A DNA stretch of 64,000 nucleotides from the NCBI GenBank assembly GCA_045805065.1, contig JBJMMA010000259.1:2874-66873 (forward strand). Reading direction: 5' to 3'. The DNA comes from Bdellovibrionia bacterium (GTDB taxonomy: Bacteria > Bdellovibrionota > UBA1018). Made by a program: the position numbers and the translations under genes. Positions 1-64,000 of this stretch are shown one piece after another; the first letter of the stretch is position 1, and every line of letters begins with the position of its first letter. Below the pieces are notes generated by a model. It saw only the letters and a list, made by a program, of their open reading frames with translations, was not told the DNA's origin and searched no databases.

Positions 1-824
1 GCCCACAAATCTATCTCTCCCGTACTTCTCCGAAGTATCTGATGAAGCTCTTCGAAACCGAAGTGCCTGAGATCCGTGAAGGCATCGTGGAAATCAAGCT
101 TTGCTCCCGCGAGCCAGGCGCACGCTCCAAGATCGCTGTCACCTCGAAGGACCGTGACGTGGATCCAGTCGGCGCATGCGTCGGCATGAAGGGCATTCGC
201 GTTCAGAACGTGATTCAAGAGCTCAAGGGCGAGAAGATCGACATCATTCCTTGGTCGGATAACCCAATGCTGTTTGTTCGCAGCGCATTGGCTCCAGCTG
301 AGATCTCTTCTATTCGCGTCGATGAACGTGATAAGAAGATGGAAATTATGGTCGAAGACGACCAGCTCTCACTGGCCATCGGCCGTAAGGGTCAAAACGT
401 TCGTCTGGCAGCACAGCTGACGGGTTGGAGACTCGATATCATTTCGAAGTCCAAGCTCCAAAAGCGTACTGCAGAAGCTATCTTCAACTTGCAGCACATT
501 GAAGGCGTCAACGAGACGCTCGCACAAGCCATCTACCAAGCTGGCTTCTTCAATGTCCGCCAGGTTGCGGATGCACAACTTGAAAATCTCCAGAAGATTC
601 CTGGCTACGAAAGCGCTGAAGCCGCTCAGAAGCTCAAGGAACTGGCCGCAGGTGTGGTTGAAAAGGCTGGAGATGTTCTCGCAGGTCCAAGCGCAAATGA
701 CGATAGCAAAGGCAGCTTCACCGCTGCTCCATCGTCAAACGACGCTAAGGCTCAAGCCGAGCAACGCTTGCGTGAGATGATGAAACAAGACACGGGTGGC
801 ACTTCCGGCGCTGACAAAAGCTGA
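1..824 (+). CDS. nusA: Transcription termination/antitermination factor NusA, C-terminal part (5' end lies outside the window)
   Basis: Frame is open from the window start. KH-domain-like 'GMKGIRVQNVIQEL' and 'IGRKGQNVRLAAQLTGW' segments, plus an acidic C-terminal tail. Sits immediately upstream of infB as in the conserved nusA-infB operon. Confidence 0.85.
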   Translation, partial: PQIYLSRTSPKYLMKLFETEVPEIREGIVEIKLCSREPGARSKIAVTSKDRDVDPVGACVGMKGIRVQNVIQELKGEKIDIIPWSDNPMLFVRSALAPAEISSIRVDERDKKMEIMVEDDQLSLAIGRKGQNVRLAAQLTGWRLDIISKSKLQKRTAEAIFNLQHIEGVNETLAQAIYQAGFFNVRQVADAQLENLQKIPGYESAEAAQKLKELAAGVVEKAGDVLAGPSANDDSKGSFTAAPSSNDAKAQAEQRLREMMKQDTGGTSGADKS

Positions 825-894: not shown

Positions 895-3753
895 ATGTCA
901 GAACACGAAACCGTGAAGGTCTATGAGCTTGCGAAGGAGCTGGGAATCGATTCGATTTCTTTGCTCGATAAGCTCAAAGGTCTGAACATCAATGTAAAAA
1001 ACCATATGAGCGAGCTTCGAGGAGAAGAAGCAAGCTTGGCGCGGAACTCTCTGCGCCCTTCCTCGGGATCAGCAAAGTCCGCTGCTCCCAAGAAGACCGT
1101 GACTCGCGCTCGCAAGAAGACCGAGACAACGGCAGCTGCGGCTCCAACGCCTGCGGCTGAAGCACCTACTGCTCGCGCAGCCTCTCCGATCATTCGCCGC
1201 CGCACGAAAGCGGACGGTGCCGTGACGGAAACTGTGACGCAGACTCTTCGCAATGGCTCCACTGAGCAGACGGAAACGACCGCACCAGCCGGAGGTCATT
1301 CTGCCGCTCATGAAGAGAACATGGCAGCTGAGCATGCCCACGCCGGAGCCGAAGCTTCCGTTCAGGAATTCGAAGCGCAGAACGAAACGCATGCAGCTCA
1401 TGAAGAAGCCGCTCCTTCAGAGGAAATGAATGCTTCTGAAGAAGTAGCAGCAAGCGAGAGCGATTCTGCCGCTCAAGAGGCAAATGAAGCAGCACCTGCC
1501 GCTCACGCAGGTCCAGCGCCTACTGCAAACGCAGGCGCCAATGCACCAACTTCAGCAGGTCCAGCGACCGCAGCTCCGCAACAGCCTGCGACGCCTCCTG
1601 CTCGTCCTCCGATTGCTCCGTTCAACCGCCCAGTGGCGCCTCGTCGTAGCATCCTGAAGATCGTTGAAGCATCCGCTCCTCCTCCTCGTCCAGTGATCAA
1701 GCCAGCTCCTGCTGCATCACCGATCAAACCGGTGGCAAAGCCAGGCACCGGCCCTGTGGGTGGAGATAAGGACGGCTACCGCATCATCAAGGCGACGAAA
1801 GAAAGCCTCGACCAGATGGTTGAGGAAGAAGCCGCCAAGAAGCGTGGGGGTGGCGGTAAAGAAGCTGAAATTCGTCCTGAGGACGTCCGCTTTGCCGACT
1901 ACCGTAAGAAGGAAATGGTCTTTCTTCCTAAGAAGAAGAGACTTCCTATCGGTAAAGAGATCAAGAAGACCCAGATCACCGAGAAGAGCGCTCAAAAGCG
2001 CGTGATCACGATGCAAGAAGCGATTTCCGTTCAGGATCTCGCCGCTCAGCTCAGCGTCAAGGCAGTCGATGTCATCCGTAAGCTCATGGGAATGGGCCAG
2101 ATGGCAACGATCAACCAGTCGATCGACTTCGACACGGCAACTCTCGTTGCAAACGAATACGGCTACGAAGTCCGTAACGTTGCTTACAACGAAGAAGCCC
2201 TCATCGGAGTTGGCGAAGATGCGGCTGAAGAACTTCAGCCACGTCCACCAGTCGTGACCATCATGGGTCACGTCGACCACGGCAAGACGACCCTTCTCGA
2301 TGCAATTCGTGAAGCGGATGTCGCAGGTGGCGAAGCTGGCGGGATCACGCAGCACATCGGCGCTTATACCGTTGAAAAGAACGGCAAGCTCATCACCTTC
2401 ATCGATACGCCAGGCCACGAAGCGTTCTCCGTCATGCGCGCACGTGGTGCGAACGTCACGGATATCGTGATTCTCGTCGTGTCTGCGGATGACGGCGTGA
2501 TGCCACAAACCCGTGAAGCCCTCTCACATGCGCAAGCTGCGAAGGTGCCAATCATTGTGGCCGTGAACAAGATCGACAAGCCAGGCGCAAACCCTGATAA
2601 GATCAAACAAGGCTTAGCTGAGCTCAATCTCTTGGCTGAAGACTGGGGCGGCGAAACGATGTTCGTCCAAGTTTCGGCTCTTAAGAAGTTGAACATCGAC
2701 AAGCTTCTGGATGCGATTCTTCTCCAGGCTGAAGTTCTGGACCTCAAGGCCAACCCAGCGCCACAAGCCTCGGGAACCGTCCTTGAAGCGCGCCTTGAAA
2801 AAGGCCGTGGTCCAGTGGTCAGCGTCCTGGTCAACCGCGGAACTCTCCGCGTCGGTGATCCGATTGTTTCGGGCACTTACGCTGGTAAGGTCAAGGCACT
2901 CACCGACGACAAGGGTCGCACCGTAAAGACGGCAACCCCTGGCATCGCAGTCGAGATCCTGGGCTTTGAAGGCCTGCCAAACGCAGGTGAGAAGTTCAGC
3001 GCAGCTCCGACCGATGCAGACGCACGCGAGATTGCTCAGAACCGTATCGACAAGAACCGCGCAAGAGCTAACGTGCCTACCGCTAAGGCAAGCTTGGAAG
3101 ACCTCTTTGCCAAGATCCAGACCGGAAACGTGAAGGAGCTTGAAGTGGTTCTTAAGGCTGACGTGTTCGGCTCCGTCGAAGCGATTCGCGAAAGCTTGAC
3201 GAAACTTTCGACCGAAAAGGTCAAAGTGAAAGTCATCTACGCAGCGCCAGGCGGCATCACGGAAAGCGACGTCCTTTTGGCCAGCGCTTCCGAGAACGCG
3301 ATCATCATCGGCTTCAACGTACGTCCTGAAACCAAGGCTCGCCAGCTTGCAGAAGCTGAGCATGTCGAAATCAAGTCGTACTCGATCATTTACGAGCTTC
3401 TCGATGACATCAGGAACGCGATGGTCGGTCTTCTCGATAAGAAGAAGGTCGAACGTTTCTTGGGTCGTGCGGAAGTCCGCCAGATCTTCTCCGTTCCAAA
3501 AATCGGCGTGATTGCCGGTACGGCGGTGGTCGATGGCAAGATGATCCGTGGATCCAATGTTCGCTTGTTGCGTGACAGCAAGATCGTCTACGAAGGCAAG
3601 ATGGGTTCACTCCGTCGCTTCAAAGACGACGCGAAGGAAGTTGCTACGGGATATGAATGCGGTATCGGCATTGAGAACTATAACGATCTCAAGCCGGGCG
3701 ATATCATCGAAGCATTCCAGATCGATCTGATCACTCCGGAGCTTGACTCCTAA
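895..3753 (+). CDS. infB: Translation initiation factor IF-2
   Basis: 952 aa. GTPase G1 motif '[12 protein letters not shown]' and 'DTPGHEAF'. Long Ala/Pro-rich N-terminal region typical of IF-2. Position after nusA. Confidence 0.95.
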
Positions 3754-22018: not shown

Positions 22019-24799
22019 ATGGCGCAGCAGATCGATCTCGAGAATCAGAGCCCTTCTCAGACCCCGTCCCAGACCCCATTAATGAAGCAGTACTGGGATC
22101 TGAAAAAGCAGGCGGGCGATGCCCTTCTTCTTTTCAGAATGGGTGATTTCTATGAACTGTTTGGAGACGACGCGGTTGAGGCCGCTCGCATTCTCGACAT
22201 CACGCTGACCTCGCGCGATAAGAACAAGGCGAACCCGATGCCCATGGCAGGAGTTCCCCACCACAGCGTGCAGGGCTACCTGCAGAGACTTTTGAAAGCT
22301 GGCAAAAAAGTCGCGATCGGCGAGCAGATTGAAGACCCGGCTACCGTCGTGGGCAAGGCGATTGTGAAGCGCGATATTGTTCGCACCTTTACGCCTGGAA
22401 TCCAGTTTGAATCGGAAGGATCGGAAGCCCACTATCTGGCAATCCTCGTTCCTACTTCTTTTGTCCGTGGCGATAAGAGCGACACCTGGAATCTGGCTTG
22501 CCTCGACGCCTCAACGGGTGAAGCGTTAGTCAGTGAGCCTATGAGCGCTCAAGCCGCGGCCACTGAATTGGGACTGTTACCGGTTCGCCATCTCTTGACG
22601 ATCAGCGATCAGTCGCTTCCGGAGCTCTTGAGTCACGCCGTATCGGCCCTGACCGCAAACCAGGTTTTGATCGAAGAGATTCCAGCCAACTATCTTTCGC
22701 TCATTCAGGCGCGCGAGATCCTCAAAAAGAACTATGGCCTGGACCAGCTGGGCGCCTTCATCTCAACAGACGAGGGAATCATCGCTTTAGGAATCCTGGT
22801 CATCTACGCCGCACGCTCGCAAAAACAAGAGCGCTTGCAGCACTTGAGACTTCCTTCTCCTTTGCGCAAACCCAAGACTTTGGTGCTGGGACCGCGCGTC
22901 CCGCAACACTTGGATTTGGTGCCGGCTCAAGAAGGAACCCCTCACCTTTATGGTCTCATCAATCACACACGCTCAGCTCTGGGCGCGCGCCAACTCAAAC
23001 GCTGGCTCCTCTCTCCTTTAAAGGACTCCAAGGAGATCGCTGCCAGGCAGGACGCGGTTCGCGAGATCCTGAGAAGCGATAGCCGCGAGCGCCTCTCGCA
23101 AGAGCTTGCGGATGTTTACGATCTTGAGCGCATCTTGGGTCGCGTGAATACGGGACTTGCCAACCCACGCGACACTTTGCAGCTCGGACGCTCCATCCGC
23201 GCGCTTTCTCAGATGTCTGGCTATTTGAGCTCTTACAAAGCGCCGCTTCTGAAGAACATGGCCGAAAGCTTTGCCCAGGCCTCAAGCGCTCTTCAAGACT
23301 TGGGCAAGAGAATCGTCGACAATCAGCGCGAAGAAGCTCCACTGACCGCGCGCGATGGTGAAATCTTCAGCCGCGGCACCTCTCCGGATCTCGATCATCT
23401 GATTGATCTTACGGAGAACGGTCAGCGCTGGCTCGTGGATCTTGAAACGCGCGAGCGTGAAGCCACGGGCATCACTTCCCTTAAAGTGCGCTACAACCGC
23501 GTCTTTGGATACTATCTTGAAGTGACTTCAGCGCACCTCAAAAACGTTCCTGCGCATTACCAGCGCAAGCAGACGATGGTGGGTGCTGAGCGTTTCTTTA
23601 CGGAAGAGCTGAAAAAGTTTGAAGAAGAGATTCTCACTGCCTCGTCTCGCCAAAAATCCCTGGAGCAGCAGCTCTTCGAAGATCTCTTGAAGTCGATTCA
23701 GGAACAAACTTCAGCGATCATGGAAGCCGCCCGCGTTTTGGGTGAGCTCGATGCGCTGGTCTCGCTCTCGCGCCTGGCCGATGAAGCAGGATGGTCTTTC
23801 CCTGAAATTGATGACTCCCTTGAGATGACCATCATGAACGGCCGTCACCCGCTCGTGGATCGAAACAGCGGCGGTGGATTTGTTCCAAATGATCTGAAAC
23901 TCTCGGATCAAACGCGCCTGACTCTGATGATCACTGGCCCGAACATGGGCGGTAAATCGACCGTCATGCGCCAGGTGGCGCTCATCGTGATTTTGGGACA
24001 AATGGGTGCGCCCGTTCCTGCCAGTGAAGCTCGCTGGGGTTCGGTCTCCTCCTTATATACCCGTATCGGCGCACACGACGCGATCGCCCGCGGCCAATCG
24101 ACTTTCATGGTCGAGATGAGCGAGCTTGCGCATATTCTTCATTACGCGGATTCGCGCTCCCTGATCATTCTCGATGAAATCGGCCGCGGCACGAGCACCT
24201 ATGACGGAATGAGTGTGGCTTGGGCAACGCTGGAGTGGATCTGCCAGAAGATCAAGGCTCGCACTCTTTTTGCGACCCACTATCATGAGCTCACGCGTCT
24301 GACGACGCAGCTTCCACTTCTTGCCAATGCCCATATGGCAGTGGAGAGCGAGAAGACCGGCAAGAGTTCGAATCTTCGCTTCCTTTATAAGCTCAAAGAA
24401 GGTCCAACCAACGAGAGCTTCGGTGTTCACGTCGCGCAGATCGCAGGACTTCCACGCCCGGTGATTGATCGCGCCTGGAAAGTGCTCGATGAACTGGAGA
24501 ACGGAAACGCTCACCCGCAAGCTGCACAGCTTTCGCTTTTTGATTTAGCAGCTCAGGCTGAGCCTGAACAAGAACCTCAAATTGAAACTCAGCCTGAACC
24601 TAAAAAGGAAGAGGAACTCGAGCGACTTGCGATTCTCGAAGATTTAAAAAACCTCAACCTCAACGCAATGACCCCGCTTCAAGCACTCAACGAGCTGGCA
24701 AGACTTCAGGATAAGTATCGCGAATCTGACGAAGGGTTTTCTGCAGGGATCCGCCAACAGCAACCTCAGGATGCTGGATCGAAATCCATCGCAAACTAG
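22019..24799 (+). CDS. mutS: DNA mismatch repair protein MutS
   Basis: 926 aa. Walker A 'TGPNMGGKST'. 'STFMVEMSE' and 'DEIGRGTSTYDG' MutS motifs. Confidence 0.95.
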   Translation: MAQQIDLENQSPSQTPSQTPLMKQYWDLKKQAGDALLLFRMGDFYELFGDDAVEAARILDITLTSRDKNKANPMPMAGVPHHSVQGYLQRLLKAGKKVAIGEQIEDPATVVGKAIVKRDIVRTFTPGIQFESEGSEAHYLAILVPTSFVRGDKSDTWNLACLDASTGEALVSEPMSAQAAATELGLLPVRHLLTISDQSLPELLSHAVSALTANQVLIEEIPANYLSLIQAREILKKNYGLDQLGAFISTDEGIIALGILVIYAARSQKQERLQHLRLPSPLRKPKTLVLGPRVPQHLDLVPAQEGTPHLYGLINHTRSALGARQLKRWLLSPLKDSKEIAARQDAVREILRSDSRERLSQELADVYDLERILGRVNTGLANPRDTLQLGRSIRALSQMSGYLSSYKAPLLKNMAESFAQASSALQDLGKRIVDNQREEAPLTARDGEIFSRGTSPDLDHLIDLTENGQRWLVDLETREREATGITSLKVRYNRVFGYYLEVTSAHLKNVPAHYQRKQTMVGAERFFTEELKKFEEEILTASSRQKSLEQQLFEDLLKSIQEQTSAIMEAARVLGELDALVSLSRLADEAGWSFPEIDDSLEMTIMNGRHPLVDRNSGGGFVPNDLKLSDQTRLTLMITGPNMGGKSTVMRQVALIVILGQMGAPVPASEARWGSVSSLYTRIGAHDAIARGQSTFMVEMSELAHILHYADSRSLIILDEIGRGTSTYDGMSVAWATLEWICQKIKARTLFATHYHELTRLTTQLPLLANAHMAVESEKTGKSSNLRFLYKLKEGPTNESFGVHVAQIAGLPRPVIDRAWKVLDELENGNAHPQAAQLSLFDLAAQAEPEQEPQIETQPEPKKEEELERLAILEDLKNLNLNAMTPLQALNELARLQDKYRESDEGFSAGIRQQQPQDAGSKSIAN

Positions 24800-46756: not shown

Positions 46757-48130
46757 TTAATTCATTGGCGGAGGATTCGACAAGAACTCAGTCATTGTCG
46801 CACCTTGATCCTTGTTCGGCACGATTAAGGTGGCCGTACGCCAGTTCGGCGTCGCCAGGAGATAACGACCGTTACCTAAGCCCGGCGCATAACCCAGACT
46901 CCACCCCGTGGTAGGGGTAGGATAATAATCAGCCCCTGTGTCGATCACGTACTTGGCGACGCTGCGATCATCTGGCTTGGACGAATCAGCAACGACAAGC
47001 CTCGTATCCACAGCCACGAAAACCGCTCTTACGTCCGCAGGATTTGGAATCCCTTTGCCCCCGCTCGAGGAGGAGCTGCCGTAGCCGTGCTCGAAGTAAG
47101 GATAGGCAGGGCGAAAGGAAACGCCACCGTCGGATTCTACTTTTCGGTCAGGCGTGCCCGCGCTGGCGAATGGGTACTTCCACAGGCCAGTGTCCGGAGC
47201 CGTGACTTGGTTCCATTGCGACCACTTGCGCGTCGAATTGGAGAGAATGTAAACTCTAAGATTTTTGATTTCTACACGCGTGTTGGTCGCGGCGTTTCCT
47301 TGAGCCTCGTACAGCGTGTACCATGCGAGCAATCCGCTACACCAGGTAGGACGCTCCCCCGTCCACCAAGATGGGATTGAGCTTCCGGCTGGTGAGTACT
47401 GCGTGATCACAGGATTGTACTGCCAGTCGAACGAAGGATTGATCACCAGCGCCTCGCTTGGAGACGACATGTCTTTCACCACTTGGTCGATTGTCAGCCC
47501 AGTTGAGGAAGTCGACGAAGGCGTTGGACTTGGCTTTACAGTCGGTGTCGGACTTGGACTTGGCTTCGGAGTCACAGTTGGACTCGGGCTCGGAATTGGC
47601 GCGGCTCCACTTGCAAAGCTCCATTTCTGATTGGCACCGGCGCCGCAATCATAGAGAATCACCGGCGTTCCATTTGCGGAATTATTTGCGGCGACATCCA
47701 TGCAGCGTCCACTCGATGCACTCACAAGCCTTCCGTTCGAGAGTGACCATTTTTGAGTTACTGAATTGTTGCAGGTCTTGGAGACGATGGGATTCAAGTT
47801 GGCGCCAGTGCCCTTGATGTCCAGGCAAAGATTGCCAGCACCAGCAAAGCTCTTCAGCTGTCCTGAGGAGTTCAGAACGAAAGACTGATTGCTTCCGCCG
47901 TTACAACTCCAGATCTCAAGCGCCGCGCCAGAAGCAGTGCTGTTAGCAGTGACATCTAAGCATATATTGGTTCCAAGGCTGCTCTTCACTGCCCCTGATG
48001 CTACGGTCGTGACTGCCGCAGCTTTGGCTGGATGGGCGGAGGCGATCAATGCAAGAGCAAGTCCTCCCGACCAGGGCGCAACTCGCTTTAAAAATGCTCT
48101 ACTCTTAATCGCTCTACAGGTTTTCATTTC
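46757..48130 (-). CDS. Secreted ricin-B (beta-trefoil) lectin domain protein with a Pro/Thr/Ser linker and an unknown C-terminal domain
   Basis: Signal peptide from the internal Met 48130. QxW repeats 'NQSFVL', 'TQKWSL', 'NQKWSF' lie around 'CLD' motifs. Linker 'PSPSPTVTPKPSPSPTPTVKPSPTPSS'. The ORF extends to 48178. Confidence 0.7.
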   Translation of the reverse strand, partial: EMKTCRAIKSRAFLKRVAPWSGGLALALIASAHPAKAAAVTTVASGAVKSSLGTNICLDVTANSTASGAALEIWSCNGGSNQSFVLNSSGQLKSFAGAGNLCLDIKGTGANLNPIVSKTCNNSVTQKWSLSNGRLVSASSGRCMDVAANNSANGTPVILYDCGAGANQKWSFASGAAPIPSPSPTVTPKPSPSPTPTVKPSPTPSSTSSTGLTIDQVVKDMSSPSEALVINPSFDWQYNPVITQYSPAGSSIPSWWTGERPTWCSGLLAWYTLYEAQGNAATNTRVEIKNLRVYILSNSTRKWSQWNQVTAPDTGLWKYPFASAGTPDRKVESDGGVSFRPAYPYFEHGYGSSSSSGGKGIPNPADVRAVFVAVDTRLVVADSSKPDDRSVAKYVIDTGADYYPTPTTGWSLGYAPGLGNGRYLLATPNWRTATLIVPNKDQGATMTEFLSNPPPMN

Positions 48131-48440
48131 ATTCCCCCGACAGGAACTGTCTATTCCGTTCCTTATTATCGCACCCAAGCTACAGTAATATCAGCTGTGT
48201 CTCTATCGACCAGTCTCGAAGACGCATAAATTCGCTGAACTTTCGCGAATTAAAGTCAATCTGTATACGCACATAGGCAATGAAATGTTTTGCATCAAAT
48301 CGAGCACCCTCTCCTTGCTCAATAGACGTTGTATAACCGATATCGGACCCCAATCTGACGAGGCCTCGGTGCCTTGCTGGGCCGCTCGCCCCCTTTTCAT
48401 CGCATGATTACCCCCTTGCATCGTGTGGTAGAATAGACGC

Positions 48441-51784: not shown

Positions 51785-53041
51785 ATGGCGCCATCCGTAA
51801 AGCAGGACGAAAAACTCCACTCTCACATAGAAGATCTCCGCGGGACAAGCCGACTTGCCATTGAAGCAACTCAAGGCGTTTGTGATCTTATTGAAGCCAT
51901 GCATGAGACGGTCGCTAAGGGGCCCTACTTGTTAGGAAATCCACTTCAACGCCCAACGCGTACGATCAATCAAATGGTTTACGGAAGCATCCGTTGCGTA
52001 ACAAACCTTGTAGGAGCAAGTATCGATGGTGTCCTCGGAAGACTCACACGGCTTATCGGTCCGGGTCATAGAGTCTCCCGCTCCTCTCAGGAAGATGCCG
52101 TACTTGCAGTGCTCAATGGAGTCCTGGGCGACTATCTGCAGGAGACCGGTAATCCTCTAGCCATCCCGATGCAGCTACGGCACACCGGCGCTCCTCTTGT
52201 GCTCGAGCCAAAGGCGTTGCATGCGGCATTACCGAAGGCAGGCCCCAAACTCCTCCTTTTGGTCCATGGCTCGTGCCTGAGTGACCGACAATGGTCTCGA
52301 CAAGGGCATGATCACGGGGCGGAGCTCGCGCGCGACTTGGGATACACGCCGATATATCTGCACTACAACACCGGCCTCCACATTTCGACTAACGGTCGCA
52401 CGCTCGCCACACTCCTTGATCAGCTTGTCACAGCGTGGCCTGTGCCCCTGGAAGAAATCGCCATTTTATCCCACAGCATGGGAGGGCTCGTGGCTCGTAG
52501 CGCTTGTCACATTGCAGAGGAGCAAAACTATCTCTGGCGAAGGAAGTTACGCGTGGCGATCTTTCTTGGGACACCTCACCAGGGAGCACCGCTTGAGCGT
52601 GTGGGCAACTGGATCGACCATCTCTTAGTCATCAACCGTTACAGTGCCCCTTTCGCGCGGCTTGGTAAAATCCGCAGCGCCGGCGTAACTGACATGCGCC
52701 ATGGCAACGTGTTGGACGAACACTGGCAAGGCCGCGACCGCTTTGCTCATGGCCGCGACACCCGTACACCTTTGCCACTACCAACGAATATTTCCTGCTA
52801 CACGATCGCCGCAACAAAGGGCCCCAAAGGAACGGGAAAGCTACGAAGCGACGGCATTGTCCCCGTGAACAGCGCACTTGGCATGCATAAGTTGGCAAAG
52901 CATAGCCTTGTCTTCCCAGAAACACACCAATGGATCGCCTACGGAACAAGCCATCTCGATCTGCTCAACCGCCACGAAGTCTATACAACGGTCCGGAAAT
53001 GGCTCGAAGCACCCAAGCCAGCAAGCCTACCCAGTGGATGA
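51785..53041 (+). CDS. Alpha/beta hydrolase, lipase-like (PGAP1/EstA-like)
   Basis: 'LLLLVHGS' and nucleophile elbow 'ILSHSMGGLVAR'. Confidence 0.55.
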   Translation: MAPSVKQDEKLHSHIEDLRGTSRLAIEATQGVCDLIEAMHETVAKGPYLLGNPLQRPTRTINQMVYGSIRCVTNLVGASIDGVLGRLTRLIGPGHRVSRSSQEDAVLAVLNGVLGDYLQETGNPLAIPMQLRHTGAPLVLEPKALHAALPKAGPKLLLLVHGSCLSDRQWSRQGHDHGAELARDLGYTPIYLHYNTGLHISTNGRTLATLLDQLVTAWPVPLEEIAILSHSMGGLVARSACHIAEEQNYLWRRKLRVAIFLGTPHQGAPLERVGNWIDHLLVINRYSAPFARLGKIRSAGVTDMRHGNVLDEHWQGRDRFAHGRDTRTPLPLPTNISCYTIAATKGPKGTGKLRSDGIVPVNSALGMHKLAKHSLVFPETHQWIAYGTSHLDLLNRHEVYTTVRKWLEAPKPASLPSG

Positions 53042-53858: not shown

Positions 53859-55061
53859 TTGAACGTCATGAATGGGCGCGCTTTAATGGATTGGTCCAAA
53901 GTTTTAGTTTTTTCATCGCTACTTTTGTCAAACAACGCTCTGTCTGGAGAATGCTTTCGCCAAGTGCCAACCTTCGGTTTTAGCAATTTCAATGATCTTG
54001 CCAATAGCATCGGCGATGCAAAAAGTGAGTTGACCTCCTTTCTACCGGACAAAAAGCTGAGCCGTGATCAGATCGACAGGTTGGCCGCCGAAGCTTCTGA
54101 CGTTGTATACAACCTGTTCAAAACTGCGGGTGACAACCCCGCCAATTCATCACGTATTTTTCCAAACGACGCGATCGTGCCAGTGGATCATTTTACTTCA
54201 GCAGCTGCGCTTGTGGGTGCTCCCATGGGTTATCGAATCGCCGCGAGCTGGAACGATAATGCTCAAAACGAAGCCAAGCGAGGCGTTTTTACCGCGCTTT
54301 ATGAGCCCAATACTTATGGTCAGCCAGTGATATTCGCCTTTAAAGGAACAGTGACACGTGACGATTGGAAAGAAGACCTCTTCCATCAAGGCGGAACTCA
54401 GCTGCAATCGGTTTTTCGAATGCTGAGCCCACGCAATTCGGCCGGCGCGACCGTCTACAAAAGTCTGCTAAAACGCCTGGAGAGTGGGCAAGACGTTTTG
54501 ATCACTGGACATAGTCTGGGCGGTGGCCTTGCTCAAGCCACTGCTTACTTGTTGCAAAAAGATCTCGACGACTATCGCCGTCACGAAATCGCCCAAGGAA
54601 GAGAGCCAAAACCGGGTAATCTTCATCTTGTGACTTTTAACGCACTCGGTGGTCAGCGGACGCTGAAGGTATTTGCTAAGGCCTTCCCTAAAGATCGAGA
54701 GATCACCCCGATCCTCTATAAGGGTACCCGCCTCGAATCCAGTCCAATCGACTCTCAAATCGACGACGCGGCAGTGCTCTCTCTTCAGCCGCGTAACTAT
54801 GCTTATCCAGGCGATCCAGTATCTCCACTTTTCGATCACATTGGTCCAAAATTGATCGTCTCGAAAAAGGAGCCAAAGCGAAAAGTAACGGGCATTGCCG
54901 AAGCATCCGCCCACATGTATACCGCGCTCGGTCGGTTAAGACTTGCAGGAGGGTTTGCGCCAAGCGTTCTGAACTCAATTCACGACAAAGTCTCAGAAGC
55001 CGTCTACGACCATAGCATCAAGCTCATTCGCACGGCGATCGACTCTGATTTCAGACCTTAA
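53859..55061 (+). CDS. Secreted class 3 lipase family protein
   Basis: Signal peptide. 'LITGHSLGGGLAQA' matches the Lipase_3 nucleophile motif GHSLGG. Confidence 0.75.
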   Translation: MNVMNGRALMDWSKVLVFSSLLLSNNALSGECFRQVPTFGFSNFNDLANSIGDAKSELTSFLPDKKLSRDQIDRLAAEASDVVYNLFKTAGDNPANSSRIFPNDAIVPVDHFTSAAALVGAPMGYRIAASWNDNAQNEAKRGVFTALYEPNTYGQPVIFAFKGTVTRDDWKEDLFHQGGTQLQSVFRMLSPRNSAGATVYKSLLKRLESGQDVLITGHSLGGGLAQATAYLLQKDLDDYRRHEIAQGREPKPGNLHLVTFNALGGQRTLKVFAKAFPKDREITPILYKGTRLESSPIDSQIDDAAVLSLQPRNYAYPGDPVSPLFDHIGPKLIVSKKEPKRKVTGIAEASAHMYTALGRLRLAGGFAPSVLNSIHDKVSEAVYDHSIKLIRTAIDSDFRP

Positions 55062-58445: not shown

Positions 58446-59252
58446 ATGCGCTCAAGTGAAACCAGGCCTTCTGCCAGAACTTTAACAAAGCCTTCAAAGG
58501 AATTCGTCGATCTGCTGGAAGACGAGTTCGCACGAAGAAGCAAGCGCAACCCATCGTACTCACTTCGCGCCTTCGCAAAATCCTTGGGGGTGCATCATTA
58601 TACGCTTTCAAGAATACTCAAGGAGCGACGGCCGCTGACTCTGAAGATGATTCAGAAGCTGGTATCCAAGCTCAAGATGGAACCTGAAACGGTCCAGCAA
58701 TTTCTCACTCAGTCCCGTGAGCGAAAAAGAAAACTTCCTCATTTTGAACCGCTCGAGCTTGATAAATATCAAGTCATTCACGATTGGTATCATACCGCGA
58801 TTTTTGAGCTCGTCACGGTCAAGGGATTTCAACCTACACCCGAGTGGATATCGGAGCGTCTCAACATCTCCCAACCCATTGCTGCAAGTGCTATCGACCG
58901 ATTGTTCAGGGTAGGGCTTTTGACCCAGGATAAAAACGGGAAATGGATTCAAACCTCCGCGAACATCACGACGACGCAAAATGATTTTACGACCCAAGCG
59001 CTGCGTGCTCGGCAAAAGCAAGTCCTCGAGCTCGGCATCCGCGCAGTCGATGAAATTTCTTACGAGATGCGCGTTCAGGGCGCCACAACCATAGCGATGA
59101 ACAGCAAACGCCTGCCCGAAGTTCGCAAAAGAGTGCATCAATTTCGAAAGCAACTCTGCTCGATTCTGCAAAAAGACAAAGAGCGCGATGTCGTCTATGA
59201 GCTTGTGACCTCATTTTATCCCATGACGGCTGTCAAAGGATCCAAGAAATGA
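58446..59252 (+). CDS. HTH DNA-binding protein resembling the TIGR02147 paralogous family
   Basis: N-terminal HTH 'SYSLRAFAKSLGVHHYTLSRILKERRPLTLKMIQKLVSKL'. 268 aa. Family assignment is from memory of the family description, not a search. Confidence 0.5.
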   Translation: MRSSETRPSARTLTKPSKEFVDLLEDEFARRSKRNPSYSLRAFAKSLGVHHYTLSRILKERRPLTLKMIQKLVSKLKMEPETVQQFLTQSRERKRKLPHFEPLELDKYQVIHDWYHTAIFELVTVKGFQPTPEWISERLNISQPIAASAIDRLFRVGLLTQDKNGKWIQTSANITTTQNDFTTQALRARQKQVLELGIRAVDEISYEMRVQGATTIAMNSKRLPEVRKRVHQFRKQLCSILQKDKERDVVYELVTSFYPMTAVKGSKK

Positions 59253-60328
59253 AAAATCTCTTCATCTTAACGGCCTTTATTTTGAATTTATTTTTCACTC
59301 CACGCTTGTCGATTGCCGGAGCGGATACTCATGGCGGCGGCTCGATTGTCTGCCGTGATCGCAACGGGATGATCAAGACGGATCCACTTTCTGTTGAGCT
59401 ATTAGATCTGTGGGAAGCGGAAGCGGTTTTCAAGTATCATGTTGTAAGGACAAATGAGCCTTGGGAAGTGCAAGCCAAAGAAGCAATCGAGAAACTGCGG
59501 CTATGGGACTTCGATTTGGTTTCCGAAGCCGTGCCTTATCTTGGAATTCCGCTGTGGAATGATGCGGATATTCAGCACGAACGCGAGGCCATTAACAGAC
59601 ATGTTCCGTATCGAGATTTGGTTATCGTCGACATTCAAGACCCGCGAGCTGGAGGGATGGGGATAGGCATCGCTTCTCCGAACGACACGAGAGCTGGTTT
59701 CACGAAGAAAGGCTGCGCGCTCGAAGGCGCCGCGACTTTCAACGATGCTAAAAACTATCTGATCGTCGACACGGAGATCGTCTCCAAAATGGCTCCAACC
59801 GATTACGCAGCCTTGAGAGTTCATGAGGCGGTGTACCGCGCTCTTCGAACTTTGAAGGGAGTGACGGATTCTTTGTTGGCCCGGGCGATTACCGGAATGC
59901 TTTTTACCACTGAGCCTTTACTGAACGGATCCGCAAATGCGATTCCACCCGAAGCTAAAGTTTGTAGTTCGAGAAATGGCGACTATGTATTTTCGCTCTT
60001 TCCGAAAGAAGAAAAGCTCTTTCTACAATTCAAGGTGATGCGTGGCTTGCCGGTGATCGATTCGTCCTACTCCGAAATTCCTGCGACGTCCGACCGGTTC
60101 GCCGCAACTGACAGTTCAAATCGGATCAGAGCTGCAATGGAAGAGATGCTTCTAGGGAACAATCCTACTTTCTTCATCGGTCCGCATAACGGCGAATGGC
60201 GAGATGACTGCTTAAGCGTGTCCAAGCGAGCTGCATCAAATGAGCGCCATCCCTGGAATGCGAGCGACGATCGCGTTTGTTTTGGCAAAGTGGAAACTTC
60301 GCTTTCGTCAGCTATTTATTGCTATTAA
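59249..60328 (+). CDS. Hypothetical secreted protein
   Basis: Signal peptide 'MKNLFILTAFILNLFFTPRLSIAGA'. ATGA overlap with the upstream regulator gene. No motif recognised. Confidence 0.5.
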   Translation: MKNLFILTAFILNLFFTPRLSIAGADTHGGGSIVCRDRNGMIKTDPLSVELLDLWEAEAVFKYHVVRTNEPWEVQAKEAIEKLRLWDFDLVSEAVPYLGIPLWNDADIQHEREAINRHVPYRDLVIVDIQDPRAGGMGIGIASPNDTRAGFTKKGCALEGAATFNDAKNYLIVDTEIVSKMAPTDYAALRVHEAVYRALRTLKGVTDSLLARAITGMLFTTEPLLNGSANAIPPEAKVCSSRNGDYVFSLFPKEEKLFLQFKVMRGLPVIDSSYSEIPATSDRFAATDSSNRIRAAMEEMLLGNNPTFFIGPHNGEWRDDCLSVSKRAASNERHPWNASDDRVCFGKVETSLSSAIYCY

Positions 60329-60561
60329 GATCTGCAGATTTAAGCCGGCACAACTCTTCAGTTGTGCCGGTTTTTTCGCAAATTTGCCTCGTATTTTTCA
60401 ATAGATAGCGTGTATCTAGGCTTTCGCGCTCTCTTTGAAATGTACATAATTAGTCAGCCAATGAAACAATTGAGTCACATCACGCAAATAGTACGTACGA
60501 CGGGTTGACTCACATTCTTCGATACAACTCCACTCCGTCATAAAGCGTTTGGGTTGTTTCT

Positions 60562-62637
60562 ATGAAGACATTAAAACTCGATTGGAGCGAGCTTTCATCC
60601 GATTCACGAGGCTTTGGCCTGGTTGAAATCATGATTGCTGCAGGCATCGGAAGCGTTGTGATGCTCTCGATGTCATCGATGATGACATCGATGAATCAGT
60701 CACTTCGCGGCACAAGAACTCTTTCTTCGCGCGATCAATTATACACCCGATTCGGTCGCGAAGCGGCCAACCCCACCTCGCTGGGACAAAGTCTCACCTT
60801 CGTCGGTACGACGGCATTCCCGGCAAATGGTCCGGGAAGCATGATGGATAAATGCGTGAATGGCGGCACGCCAAATGGTTGTGTCGCACGCAATTCCACC
60901 ACTTATGCTCCCATCAGCTATGGCTTCACCCTGACTGATGCATTAGGAAATCCTGTTGCAGGCCCAGACACCGCGAACGCGGCCGTCTATGACACGATGG
61001 GCGCAGCCTGCGGAAGCGCATCAACAACATCACCGTCGATCAACTGCCCAGTGATTGCTTACACTTCCTTTGTACCAGTCTGTCCTGGCGCTACGCCCGC
61101 CGCCAGTGTGCAATGTGATCGCGCTACGAGCATCATCGTCACTTACACTCTGGAACAGCGAAGCGGCATCTCGATTCCAGCCGGCACAACCTTTGCGGTT
61201 TTTAAACCCATGGCGGGAACGGTCACAACAGCGATCCCCTTTCCTGCCACAGGAACAACAGGCGTTGGAAATTTTCTCGCCAAATGGGTGTCTAACACGC
61301 AACTGAGCTCAAGTCAGGTTTACGAGGACCCCATCAATCAATACATCGGCCTGGGTACTACCACGCCTTTGTCCAAGCTGACGATTCAAGACACGAGAAC
61401 TGATACTGCAGCAAGCGCTCAGGGCGTATCCTTGATCTCCAGCCAGCAGGTGAATCCCTCGACAACCAGTAACACGCAATTTTCCGCAGGTCTTTTCATG
61501 TCGAAAGGCGTCTCCAATGTGAATCTTATGAGAGGGATCTCCTCGCTTGCAGGAATTGCGAACTGGTCGGCGCCTACTGCTACTACGCACTCCATTTACG
61601 GCACGGAGGGAGTGGCTCTAAATACATCGACGGGCGTGGCCGACTCGGCTTTTGGAGTGGCGGGAACAATCCGAAATCAAGCGGGTGGATCGATTAACTT
61701 TGCAAAAGGGGTCGGCGGATATGTGTACAACGATTCCACAGGGACGATCACAAATGCCTATGCAGGGCATTTCCAAATCAACCCTCCTCAGTCACCTCCT
61801 CTCACCGGCAATCCAATTGTCAATGCTTACGGTGTCTATATTGATCGGATCGATAATGCGACTAACAAGTGGGCGCTTTATTCTAACGACAGCAGTGCAC
61901 CTAGTTATATCGCTGGAACTTTAACGATTGGTCCGACGGGCGCATATAACGGCGCTGCGAGCCGTTTATACGTTGGAGCGGATGGCACCACGGGCCGATC
62001 CATAAATGCAGCAGGTACCATTAACGCTTCGGGCGCAGATTTCGCGGAGTGGGTCGATTGGAAGAAAGGACCTAAGCCCGAAATGGGTTCAGTCGTTTTA
62101 TATAAGGGAATTTACGTCGTTGTTTCATCAGAAAAAACAGCGGCGTTTGTTGGTAACGACAAAAAGGATTTGAGTAGATCCATCCTGGTCGCCTTCGCAG
62201 GCCAACTCCCCGTATTGATCCGAGGCCCAATTCACGTCGGTGATTTGGTGATTGGAAATGGAGATGGAACAGCCAAAGCAGTTGCTAGAAAAGACGTCAC
62301 GATCGACATGGCTCAAAAAACCGTAGGCACGGCGTGGGAGACGTCAAATGACCCTGCCGTAAAAAGAGTAAACGTCGCCGTAGGACTTGGCTTAAACGGT
62401 GGTGGCGTACGGGATATAGCTTCGCTTTCAGCTGATGTTCAAAAAGGCAAAGCCGAGAATGAAAAGCTGAAGCAAGAAAACGTCGCTTTGGCCAAAGAGC
62501 TCGGCGATCTTAAATCGCGTTTAGATCAAATCGAGAACTCACTCAAGGCCCGCGCAGATTCATCCTATTGGAAAGTTGCCCGAAGTGAAATTTTCAAATT
62601 CACTCAGACGCTAGCTCTATGCTCAGGAGGGACTTAA
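60562..62637 (+). CDS. Large (691 aa) protein with a type IV prepilin-like N-terminal cleavage/methylation segment, a Thr/Ser/Gly-rich beta-rich body and a C-terminal coiled coil
   Basis: '...SDSRG|[18 protein letters not shown]' fits the prepilin G/F-x-x-x-E(+5) pattern followed by a hydrophobic helix. C-terminal heptad-like '[30 protein letters not shown]'. Confidence 0.6.
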
Positions 62638-62638
62638 T

Positions 62639-64000
62639 ATGGAAAAGCTTTTTTCGAAAAGCTCTTTCATAGGTGAATCCCGCGGGTTGGCCATTTTAAC
62701 CTGCGCACTTACCCTCTTTCATTCTTCTCACGCAGCGTTCGCATTTTCAGAAAATGCGCAGACCTTTACGTATCAGGGCCAATTGCTCGACAGCCTGGGC
62801 AGTCCCCTTCTCGATCACACTGTTTCGATTGTTCTTTCGATCTACAATCCGGCCAAGACCTGTCTTCTCTATCAAGAGAGCCAGACCGTCGACACTTATG
62901 CGACCGATGGCATGTATTCGGTTCAAGTCGGACAATCCACAACTTCGGGAGGAAAACGCACTGCGAACGATCCGGGTTTGAGAATGGCAGCCATCTTCAG
63001 AAACGATGGCTCACAAGTCCGCTCCGCGGGCGCAACCTGTTCAGGCGGCTACATCGCATCACCCGGTGATGCGCGTCTCATGCAGGTGCAAATCACGCCA
63101 AGCTCCACCGGTGTTGCAGTCACTCTTTCGCCTGATGAAACCATTGATTCAGTTCCACAAGCCTGGTCCGCTGAAACCTTTCAGGGCATTACGCTTGGAA
63201 ATTTTATTCAGCTCTCAGGTTCTGATGCAGTTATTCCCTCGGGCAATGGCTTGAAAGTGAATGGAGCTGAAGTCATCGACTCAAACGGAAATTGGGTGGG
63301 ATCAAACTCAGGTCTCGTGGGCCCTACCGGTGCTACCGGAGTTGCTGGTGCAACGGGAGCGGTCGGACCTACAGGTGCTTCTGGTGCAACGGGAGCCACT
63401 GGCGCAGTTGGCCCAACTGGCATAACTGGACCTGCTGGCGCGGCTGGCGCTACCGGTCCAACTGGACCAGCAGGTTCCGTTGGTGCGACGGGTGCGACGG
63501 GCGTTACTGGCGCGACGGGCGCAACAGGAACGAATGGCACGAACGGTACCAATGGAGCTACCGGCGCGACGGGTGCCACCGGCGCAACAGGAGCTACAGG
63601 CACCAATGGCACTAACGGTACCAATGGTGCAACAGGTGCCACTGGAGCCACCGGAGTTACGGGAGCAACTGGCACTAACGGTTCAAATGGAGCTACCGGT
63701 GTCACTGGCGCAACCGGTGCATCAGGAACGAATGGTACCAACGGCTCAAATGGCGCTACCGGTGCGACAGGTGCGACTGGAACCACCGGGGCTACGGGAG
63801 CAACAGGCGCTACTGGAACGAACGGTACAAATGGAATCAACGGCGCTACTGGAGCAACCGGTATCACTGGCGCGACGGGTGCTACCGGCGCAACAGGAGC
63901 CACAGGCACCAATGGTGTAACTGGAGCCACCGGCACTACTGGCGCGACAGGTCCTACCGGAGTTACTGGTGCGACTGGTCCTACAGGAACGAATGGTACT
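62639..64000 (+). CDS. Secreted collagen-like (Gly-X-Y triple-helix repeat) protein, 3' end beyond the window
   Basis: ATG 62639 is preceded by 'AGGAGGG' 7 nt upstream and lies 1 nt after the upstream stop. Signal peptide '[35 protein letters not shown]'. A ~190-aa N-terminal domain follows. From about 63320 there are more than 225 residues of uninterrupted G-X-Y (GPT/GAT/GTN...). Not in the ORF track because no stop occurs before the window end. Confidence 0.75.

Follow-up and report, generated by a model that had tools for sequence, protein, structure and literature searches.

A probable mosaic adhesive trimer fibre with a collagen-like stalk in an uncultured Bdellovibrionia bacterium

What is encoded by a reading frame that opens with a signal peptide, continues into a globular domain and then runs off the end of the available DNA in one unbroken glycine repeat? 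Such a frame, starting at the ATG at 62639, closes a stretch of 64,000 nucleotides (nt) from an uncultured Bdellovibrionia bacterium (GenBank assembly GCA_045805065.1, contig JBJMMA010000259.1, positions 2,874 to 66,873 of the forward strand), referred to here as the window. Is it a gene or a decayed repeat? Is its product a collagen-like adhesin of the streptococcal or Legionella type, the tail fibre of a phage, or a surface fibre of the bacterium's own? A preliminary description of the window had proposed a secreted collagen-like surface fibre with an N-terminal globular domain. A profile match of that domain (NCBIfam NF053851) narrows the proposal: with a probability of roughly 0.78, the open reading frame (ORF) encodes a chimeric fibre of the mosaic adhesive trimer (MAT) family, which was defined in Bdellovibrio bacteriovorus HD100 (Caulton et al. 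2024, PMC10769870).

The gene and its N-terminal domain

The ORF is missing from the six-frame ORF list of the window because that list omits ORFs running off the sequence. Its ATG (62639-62641) is the first after an in-frame TAG (62612-62614), which leaves no earlier start, and a Shine-Dalgarno sequence lies ahead of it (Table 1); the positional ortholog on contig L010 has GGGAGGG at the same place. The predicted signal peptide consists of a charged n-region and a hydrophobic core followed by A-F-A and, across the predicted cut, F-S-E, a junction conserved across all close homologs in the form AxA before [FY][SA]EN. A lipoprotein reading of the 'LTC' within the signal peptide was rejected: the Cys is kept in the L010 ortholog, but it is missing in more distant homologs, in which the AxA junction is conserved instead. 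The two ORFs that the list does show over this region, 63208-63936 on the reverse strand and 63292-63615 on the forward strand, had been taken for out-of-frame artefacts. Both exist as ORFs, neither is present in a collection of 5.8 billion proteins, and the same antisense artefact is found opposite the collagen tract of a relative on contig L001.

To which family does the N-terminal part belong? Residues 36-224 are a non-repetitive, beta-rich region of 189 amino acids (aa), in agreement with the ~190 aa estimated before, and residues 30-191 match positions 5-159 of the 162-position profile NF053851 (Bdello_MAT_N) with 93.5 bits against a cutoff of 60. In Pfam and NCBIfam, the non-repetitive N-domain matches MAT_N and nothing else. 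The traits of the MAT superfamily are a beta-rich N-domain of ~130 aa, a long trimeric stalk and a variable C-terminal tip of the S74 or a non-S74 kind; there are multiple paralogs in Bdellovibrio-like genomes, and the fibres are displayed on the predator surface and relocate during prey invasion (PMC10769870). Here, too, the conserved N-domain stands right after the predicted signal peptide, and its AlphaFold2 model is mostly beta-strand, with a mean predicted local distance difference test score (pLDDT) of 64 and core strands at 80-90. MAT N-domains are said to have no homologue in the PDB (Caulton et al. 2024, PMC10769870), a description which the present domain fits, as no PDB homologue was found by sequence and a Foldseek search of the PDB with the model (pLDDT 64) gave no match at E <= 0.001. 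The same genome encodes a paralog, P0001 (ACJ763_16305), so that the family habit of multiple paralogs is seen here as well; the window itself holds one MAT_N domain only.

The domain is widespread. All seven Bdellovibrionia-type relatives tested against NF053851, among them the positional ortholog, score above the cutoff (81-116 bits), and, at E <= 0.001, 16,413 representative proteins match a profile built from the N-domain together with its relatives, 303 of them at E <= 1e-30. Among the best 150 of these 16,413 matches, the proteins measure roughly 160-2,700 aa and the domain begins no more than about 115 residues from the N-terminus, mostly at residues 7-60. The ratio of nonsynonymous to synonymous substitution rates (dN/dS) of the N-domain is 0.17 at dS 0.86 against the L010 ortholog and 0.07 against L001, values which point to strong purifying selection. 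The gene is a further member of the known MAT family, and the ORF is confirmed, as far as its sequence can tell, as a real gene fragment that would encode the N-terminal 454 residues of a MAT-family fibre.

The collagen-like stalk and its exchangeable tips

What follows the N-domain and its connector is collagen-like throughout. Residues 225-453 make up 77 consecutive Gly-X-Y triplets without interruption, and the repeat measures at least 231 residues, which bears out the more than 225 residues of perfect glycine periodicity up to the window end in the preliminary description. GAT accounts for 35 of the 77 triplets, GTN for 13 and GPT for 6; Ala prevails at X and Thr or Asn at Y, and the whole stalk contains 8 Pro and not one charged residue. 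The match to the Pfam Collagen family PF01391 is far beyond chance (E = 4.8e-35, 119.5 bits against a cutoff of 27.2). How far would such a stalk reach? Collagen rises by ~0.286 nm per residue, a textbook value from which a length of at least ~66 nm would follow. Collagen repeats form trimers, and the stalk may be a trimeric triple helix. It is the longest among the relatives examined, that of L001 being likewise of at least 77 triplets.

Is this length stable? Repeat DNA of this kind had been thought prone to length variation, which holds over evolutionary time and fails as a claim about slippage. A clean indel of 27 residues (9 triplets) within the collagen region separates the orthologs P0003 and P0004, which are otherwise ~89% identical, and family members carry from 9 to at least 77 triplets; stalk length thus appears to evolve. 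At the DNA level, the repeat is codon-scrambled, with all synonymous codons in use and units only 60-77% identical, and there is no simple tandem array. Its longest exact direct repeat spans 17 nt, no more than shuffling of synonymous codons would give (16.6 +/- 2.3 nt). This makes rapid slippage unlikely, and the idea of a slippage-prone contingency locus was rejected.

The tip of the fibre lies beyond the window. What can be learned from its relatives? The close ones have N-domains 57-76% identical to the present one and the signal-peptide junction, the N-domain and a connector of the form NG.xVID..G.WVG in common. Their collagen tract of 9-72 triplets is followed by the motif 'SPW..SG...YYT.GNVGIGT' and then by one of several unrelated C-termini. 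P0001, P0002 and P0154 share one beta-rich tip, and P0003, P0006 and P0007 a different one; P0156, P0157, P0159 and P0179 combine MAT_N and Collagen with a C-terminal Peptidase_S74 carrying SDxxxK motifs. In P0158, MAT_N is joined to S74 by a long non-collagen stalk, and P0160 has MAT_N with a C-terminal C-type lectin domain, the fold solved for Bd2740 of HD100 (PMC10769870). The relatives thus carry the same N-domain and collagen module with interchangeable C-terminal tips. How common is the collagen stalk? At least 10 Gly-X-Y triplets occur in 17 of the best 150 family representatives, and 41 show an S74-like motif close to the C-terminus, so that collagen is a minority but recurring stalk module of the MAT family.

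Collagen-like proteins of the Myxococcota (P0010, P0011 and P0017) share the first ~75 positions of the N-domain (alignment A1). In these three proteins, the NG.xVID..G.WVG connector also stands directly before the collagen, and it is almost exclusively members with collagen that match the corresponding positions of our profile (~165-188). The Myxococcota proteins reach 33-37 bits on NF053851, below the cutoff of 60, and they are without the insertion of 35 residues bearing two Cys that sets the present N-domain apart from them. By this comparison, the module of N-domain, connector and collagen spans two predatory phyla.

How does the protein compare with the MAT fibres of HD100? As in Bd2133, Bd3182, Bd2439, Bd2734 and Bd2740, a signal peptide leads into a beta-rich N-domain, the stalk would be of a trimer-forming kind, the relatives have interchangeable tips including Peptidase_S74 and C-type lectin domains, the host belongs to the Bdellovibrionota and its genome has more than one paralog. 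Of the 21 MAT proteins in HD100, 13 end in the Peptidase_S74 chaperone-protease and 8 in other domains (PMC10769870). The differences are in the stalk, which here consists of at least 77 Gly-X-Y triplets in place of beta-helix modules; in size, complete collagen-stalked relatives measuring ~400-750 aa against ~1,000 aa for the HD100 fibres; and in the coupling of the gene to one for a prepilin-type fibre.

How might such a fibre work? Going by the HD100 proteins and by collagen biophysics, the chain would be exported by Sec, after which three chains would wind together as a collagen triple helix with a length of ~66 nm or more. Folding would probably be nucleated from the C-terminal tip or from an S74 chaperone domain, as in other collagens and S74-bearing fibres. 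By analogy, the conserved N-domain would hold the fibre on the predator surface, and the unseen variable tip may bind an epitope on the surface of prey or of other cells, in all likelihood a glycan, much as the tip of Bd2439 binds Proteus glycans (PMC10769870).

Objections and alternative identities

Several points weigh against a MAT-family fibre. Surface display, trimerisation and predatory behaviour are proposals, made by analogy for an uncultured organism. It is uncertain whether a triple helix with 8 Pro and no charges would be stable unless it is glycosylated or flanked by trimerisation domains; speculatively, its stability may depend on glycosylation of the Thr residues or on the flanking domains. 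The stalks of the 21 HD100 MAT proteins are beta-helical, and collagen goes unmentioned in the main text of the paper that describes them (PMC10769870). The tip and the stop codon lie beyond base 64000, so that completeness is unproven, and no protein at least 75% identical to the N-domain is present in the 5.8-billion-protein collection; the gene may stand in the deposited record as a pseudogene or as a partial gene that could not be used, or it may have been left uncalled.

The combination of MAT-type protein and collagen has been glimpsed before. The sole mention of collagen in the MAT study is a 'Collagen-like' tip in Supplementary Table S3, for A0A7Y5J594 of a Saprospiraceae bacterium (PMC10769870). 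Like the present protein, A0A7Y5J594 is a MAT-type protein with collagen-like sequence; unlike it, that protein comes from the Bacteroidota and is described, in a table entry only, as having collagen for its tip, while here the collagen is a stalk between MAT_N and separate tips. Our search of the literature for a link between collagen-like proteins and Bdellovibrio found no paper.

Could this copy be decayed, mis-assembled or truncated, in that the frame shifts or stops early or the repeat is collapsed past base 64000, so that no full fibre is expressed? This would agree with the absence of the product from the protein collection, which contains 7 of 8 products encoded nearby on the contig (MFL5815901-911, ACJ763 locus tags). 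Where, then, could a complete 3' end be found? A scan of GTDB genomes gave no closer ortholog with one; it gave L001, 74% identical, whose contig also ends inside the collagen; a scan of JGI metagenomes gave, besides distant relatives, only L006, with a frameshifted, non-collagen stalk. The tract is cut off in L001 (10001-11307) after 77 triplets or more and in L010 (9642-10337) after 4, in two independent assemblies, so long collagen tracts of the MAT family evidently break short-read assemblies. This tendency could be turned into an argument for mis-assembly here as well; however, a contig ending inside the repeat would mark a limit of assembly and not decay. The frame runs for 1,362 nt without a stop or a break in the glycine periodicity, it has a strong ribosome-binding site and a translational coupling conserved in a second genome (L010), and the selection on its N-domain described above is that of a maintained gene. 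We consider a decayed or defective copy unlikely. Since contigs of two assemblies break inside the tract, MAT proteins that have long collagen stalks and are complete are probably scarce in databases, and these proteins might, at low probability, form a sizeable hidden class, under-represented through repeat-broken short-read assemblies.

Among the metagenome sequences, L006 1-1845 (JGI Ga0137405_1417692) is 87% identical to the end of the N-domain. It then continues as a non-collagen stalk of GNVGIGT repeats that shifts between all three frames, the result either of assembly errors or of decay of a MAT gene.

Is the protein instead a generic collagen-like adhesin of the Scl1/Scl2, Lcl or BclA type, serving attachment to a host or substrate or the formation of biofilm, with no link to MAT fibres? 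In build, it does resemble streptococcal Scl1/Scl2 and Legionella Lcl, which are secreted and join a globular N-terminal domain to a Gly-X-Y triple-helix stalk; the corresponding NCBIfam profiles are partially matched, and some homologs are named simply 'collagen-like protein' by NCBI. These matches are confined to the Gly-X-Y region, with no homology outside the repeat, and fall 4-5 fold under the equivalog cutoffs: 97.5 against 325 bits for NF038329 (Scl2/SclB), 87.9 against 400 for NF038330 (Scl1/SclA) and 103.3 against 500 for NF046116 (Lcl). The N-domain, by contrast, exceeds the cutoff of MAT_N. The N-terminal head of Scl proteins is variable and binds the ligand, and their C-terminus is the anchor; MAT proteins have the reverse polarity, being anchored by a conserved N-terminal domain and ending in a variable tip. 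Furthermore, an LPXTG/sortase anchor is not expected in a Gram-negative Bdellovibrionia host. A generic adhesin is thus very improbable.

A phage or prophage tail-fibre gene lodged in the chromosome is the least credible identity and can be set aside: the whole ORF matches 31 PHROG families, mostly of tail fibres (E down to 2e-48), the phage-type Peptidase_S74 chaperone recurs behind collagen in P0156, P0157, P0159 and P0179 as in collagen-like tail fibres, and the model of the P0001 tip (pLDDT 61) has in the PDB, by Foldseek, the capsid spike 9ny6_C as its sole notable match, a weak one (E = 0.03), but the PHROG matches fall mostly within the collagen, no PHROG family is matched by residues 1-224 on their own, tblastn of the connector gave no match in 50,697 phage records, the protein is cellular with a predicted Sec signal peptide, and its surroundings are housekeeping and signalling genes with no prophage context found, the 7 neighbouring proteins tested having no PHROG structural, packaging or lysis match and matching only one family of unknown function and helix-turn-helix regulators.

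The fibre operon and its surroundings

The gene for the MAT-type fibre does not stand alone. Directly upstream, separated from it by a single nucleotide, is the gene of a second fibre-like protein (MFL5815911.1), and no promoter-like or terminator-like site was found between them. The arrangement indicates that the two genes are co-transcribed and translationally coupled. A predicted intrinsic terminator would set the 5' limit of this two-gene fibre operon; its stem is kept in L010, where each arm carries several substitutions. The cluster of four genes to which the pair belongs is syntenic in L010 5476-10337 (a Logan contig, SRR23478507) at 77-87% nucleotide identity, and L010 keeps the MEKLFSK start and the TAAtATG junction.

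Sequence 60377-60561, the 185 nt from the terminator to the pilin-like gene, is 81% identical to L010, against ~49% at the synonymous sites of the MAT N-domain. This suggests a conserved regulatory sequence, whether promoter, operator or 5' untranslated region; on the forward strand, no sigma-70-type promoter was detected in it.

What is the upstream protein? It has a prepilin cleavage/methylation motif (RG, then FGLVEIM after the cut) and a Pfam N_methyl match just above threshold (21.6 bits against 21.2), a Thr/Ser/Gly-rich, tail-fibre-like body with the motif 'IGLGTTTP..L', a segment around SGADFAEW that weakly resembles Peptidase_G2 (13.6 bits, below cutoff) and, at the C-terminus, a coiled coil. 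PGAP calls it an 'FtsB family cell division protein', probably a misnomer derived from the coiled coil only. Its relatives are annotated as prepilin-type, some with Peptidase_S74, and one of them, P0324, keeps the first ~480 residues (46% identity) and ends in Peptidase_S74. From this shared N-terminal part with an S74 end, the upstream protein appears to represent a second family of chimeric fibres, in which a pilin N-terminus replaces MAT_N; no description of such a family was found in the MAT paper (PMC10769870).

Does the pairing have a function? A role for the upstream gene as a universal MAT partner was rejected: an unrelated gene lies 5' of P0003 in L005 and a divergent gene in L001. 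More distant homologs of the pilin-like protein are adjoined on their 3' side by a PAS kinase or an aldo-keto reductase, and the pairing of prepilin-type and MAT fibres is lineage-specific, not a rule. The interplay of pili and adhesins was raised as an open question by the authors of the MAT study (PMC10769870). The gene pair might reflect a physical partnership in which MAT N-domains are held by a type IV pilus-like or pseudopilus filament that the upstream protein tips or decorates, though we regard this as a long shot.

The window is otherwise ordinary chromosome, with nusA-infB, mutS (22019-24799), scpB, histidine kinases and one tRNA-Met; the ORF listed at 42-824 is merely the tail of nusA. 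The MutS is 100% identical to MFL5815878.1 of a Bdellovibrionia metagenome-assembled genome, encoded on a contig of 69,659 bp, which exceeds the window by 5,659 bp. Two likely secreted lectin proteins may belong to a repertoire for cell-surface recognition or degradation, and a hydrolase and a lipase-like protein close to the fibre cluster are possible secreted hydrolases (Table 1).

Table 1. Features of the gene for the MAT-type fibre, its operon and the rest of the window
Feature	Position	Strand	Remarks
MAT collagen ORF	62639..64000	+	454-codon open frame by translation; no stop before window end
Shine-Dalgarno AGGAGGG	62625..62631	+	7 nt 5' of ATG; read from sequence
Start codon and Sec signal peptide (residues 1-35)	62639..62743	+	predicted cleavage between AFA and FSE, judged from sequence
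MAT N-terminal domain (residues 36-191)	62744..63211	+	NF053851 match; presumed fibre attachment end
Connector between N-domain and collagen (residues 192-224)	63212..63310	+	near-invariant NG.xVID..G.WxG motif (alignment A1)
Collagen-like stalk, 77 Gly-X-Y triplets	63311..64000	+	open at window end; Pfam PF01391
Antisense PVAPV ORF (242 aa)	63208..63936	-	artefact of the collagen repeat, no gene
Out-of-frame ORF	63292..63615	+	shadow of the collagen repeat
Upstream prepilin-type chimeric fibre gene, 691 aa (MFL5815911.1)	60562..62637	+	TAA stop 1 nt before ATG 62639
Intrinsic terminator after 359-aa gene	60345..60376	+	predicted; hairpin -22.5 kcal/mol, z = -7.9, then six U
Four-gene cluster: DUF4423/TIGR02147 helix-turn-helix regulator, 359-aa protein (4-nt overlap), prepilin-type fibre, MAT collagen fibre	58446-62637 and onward		
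Hybrid sensor kinase, 879 aa	55473-58112	-	tandem-kinase architecture, a receiver between two HisKA/HATPase_c modules; immediately upstream of the DUF4423 regulator, in divergent orientation
Class-3 lipase-like protein	53859-55061	+	close to fibre cluster
PGAP1-like alpha/beta hydrolase	51785-53041	+	close to fibre cluster
Ricin-B lectin-domain protein	46757-48178	-	likely secreted
Protein with two SUEL/rhamnose-binding lectin domains and right-handed beta-helix	30626-32566	+	likely secreted
infB	895-3753		follows nusA
nusA tail	1-824	+	window begins inside the gene; frame +3 open from base 3; resembles NusA S1 region (LFETEVPEIREGIVEIK)

What does the locus mean for these predators? Its scope is modest, and it does not overturn the current understanding of MAT fibres. 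Short-read metagenome assemblies truncate such genes, so that catalogues of predator adhesins would be biased to members with short stalks. The coupling to a prepilin-type fibre offers a small, testable clue to the way in which the cell carries its MAT fibres. At present these fibres best explain how Bdellovibrio-like predators might recognise many kinds of prey, and in uncultured Bdellovibrionia the family would also use collagen stalks, here of at least ~66 nm, under the same logic of tip swapping.

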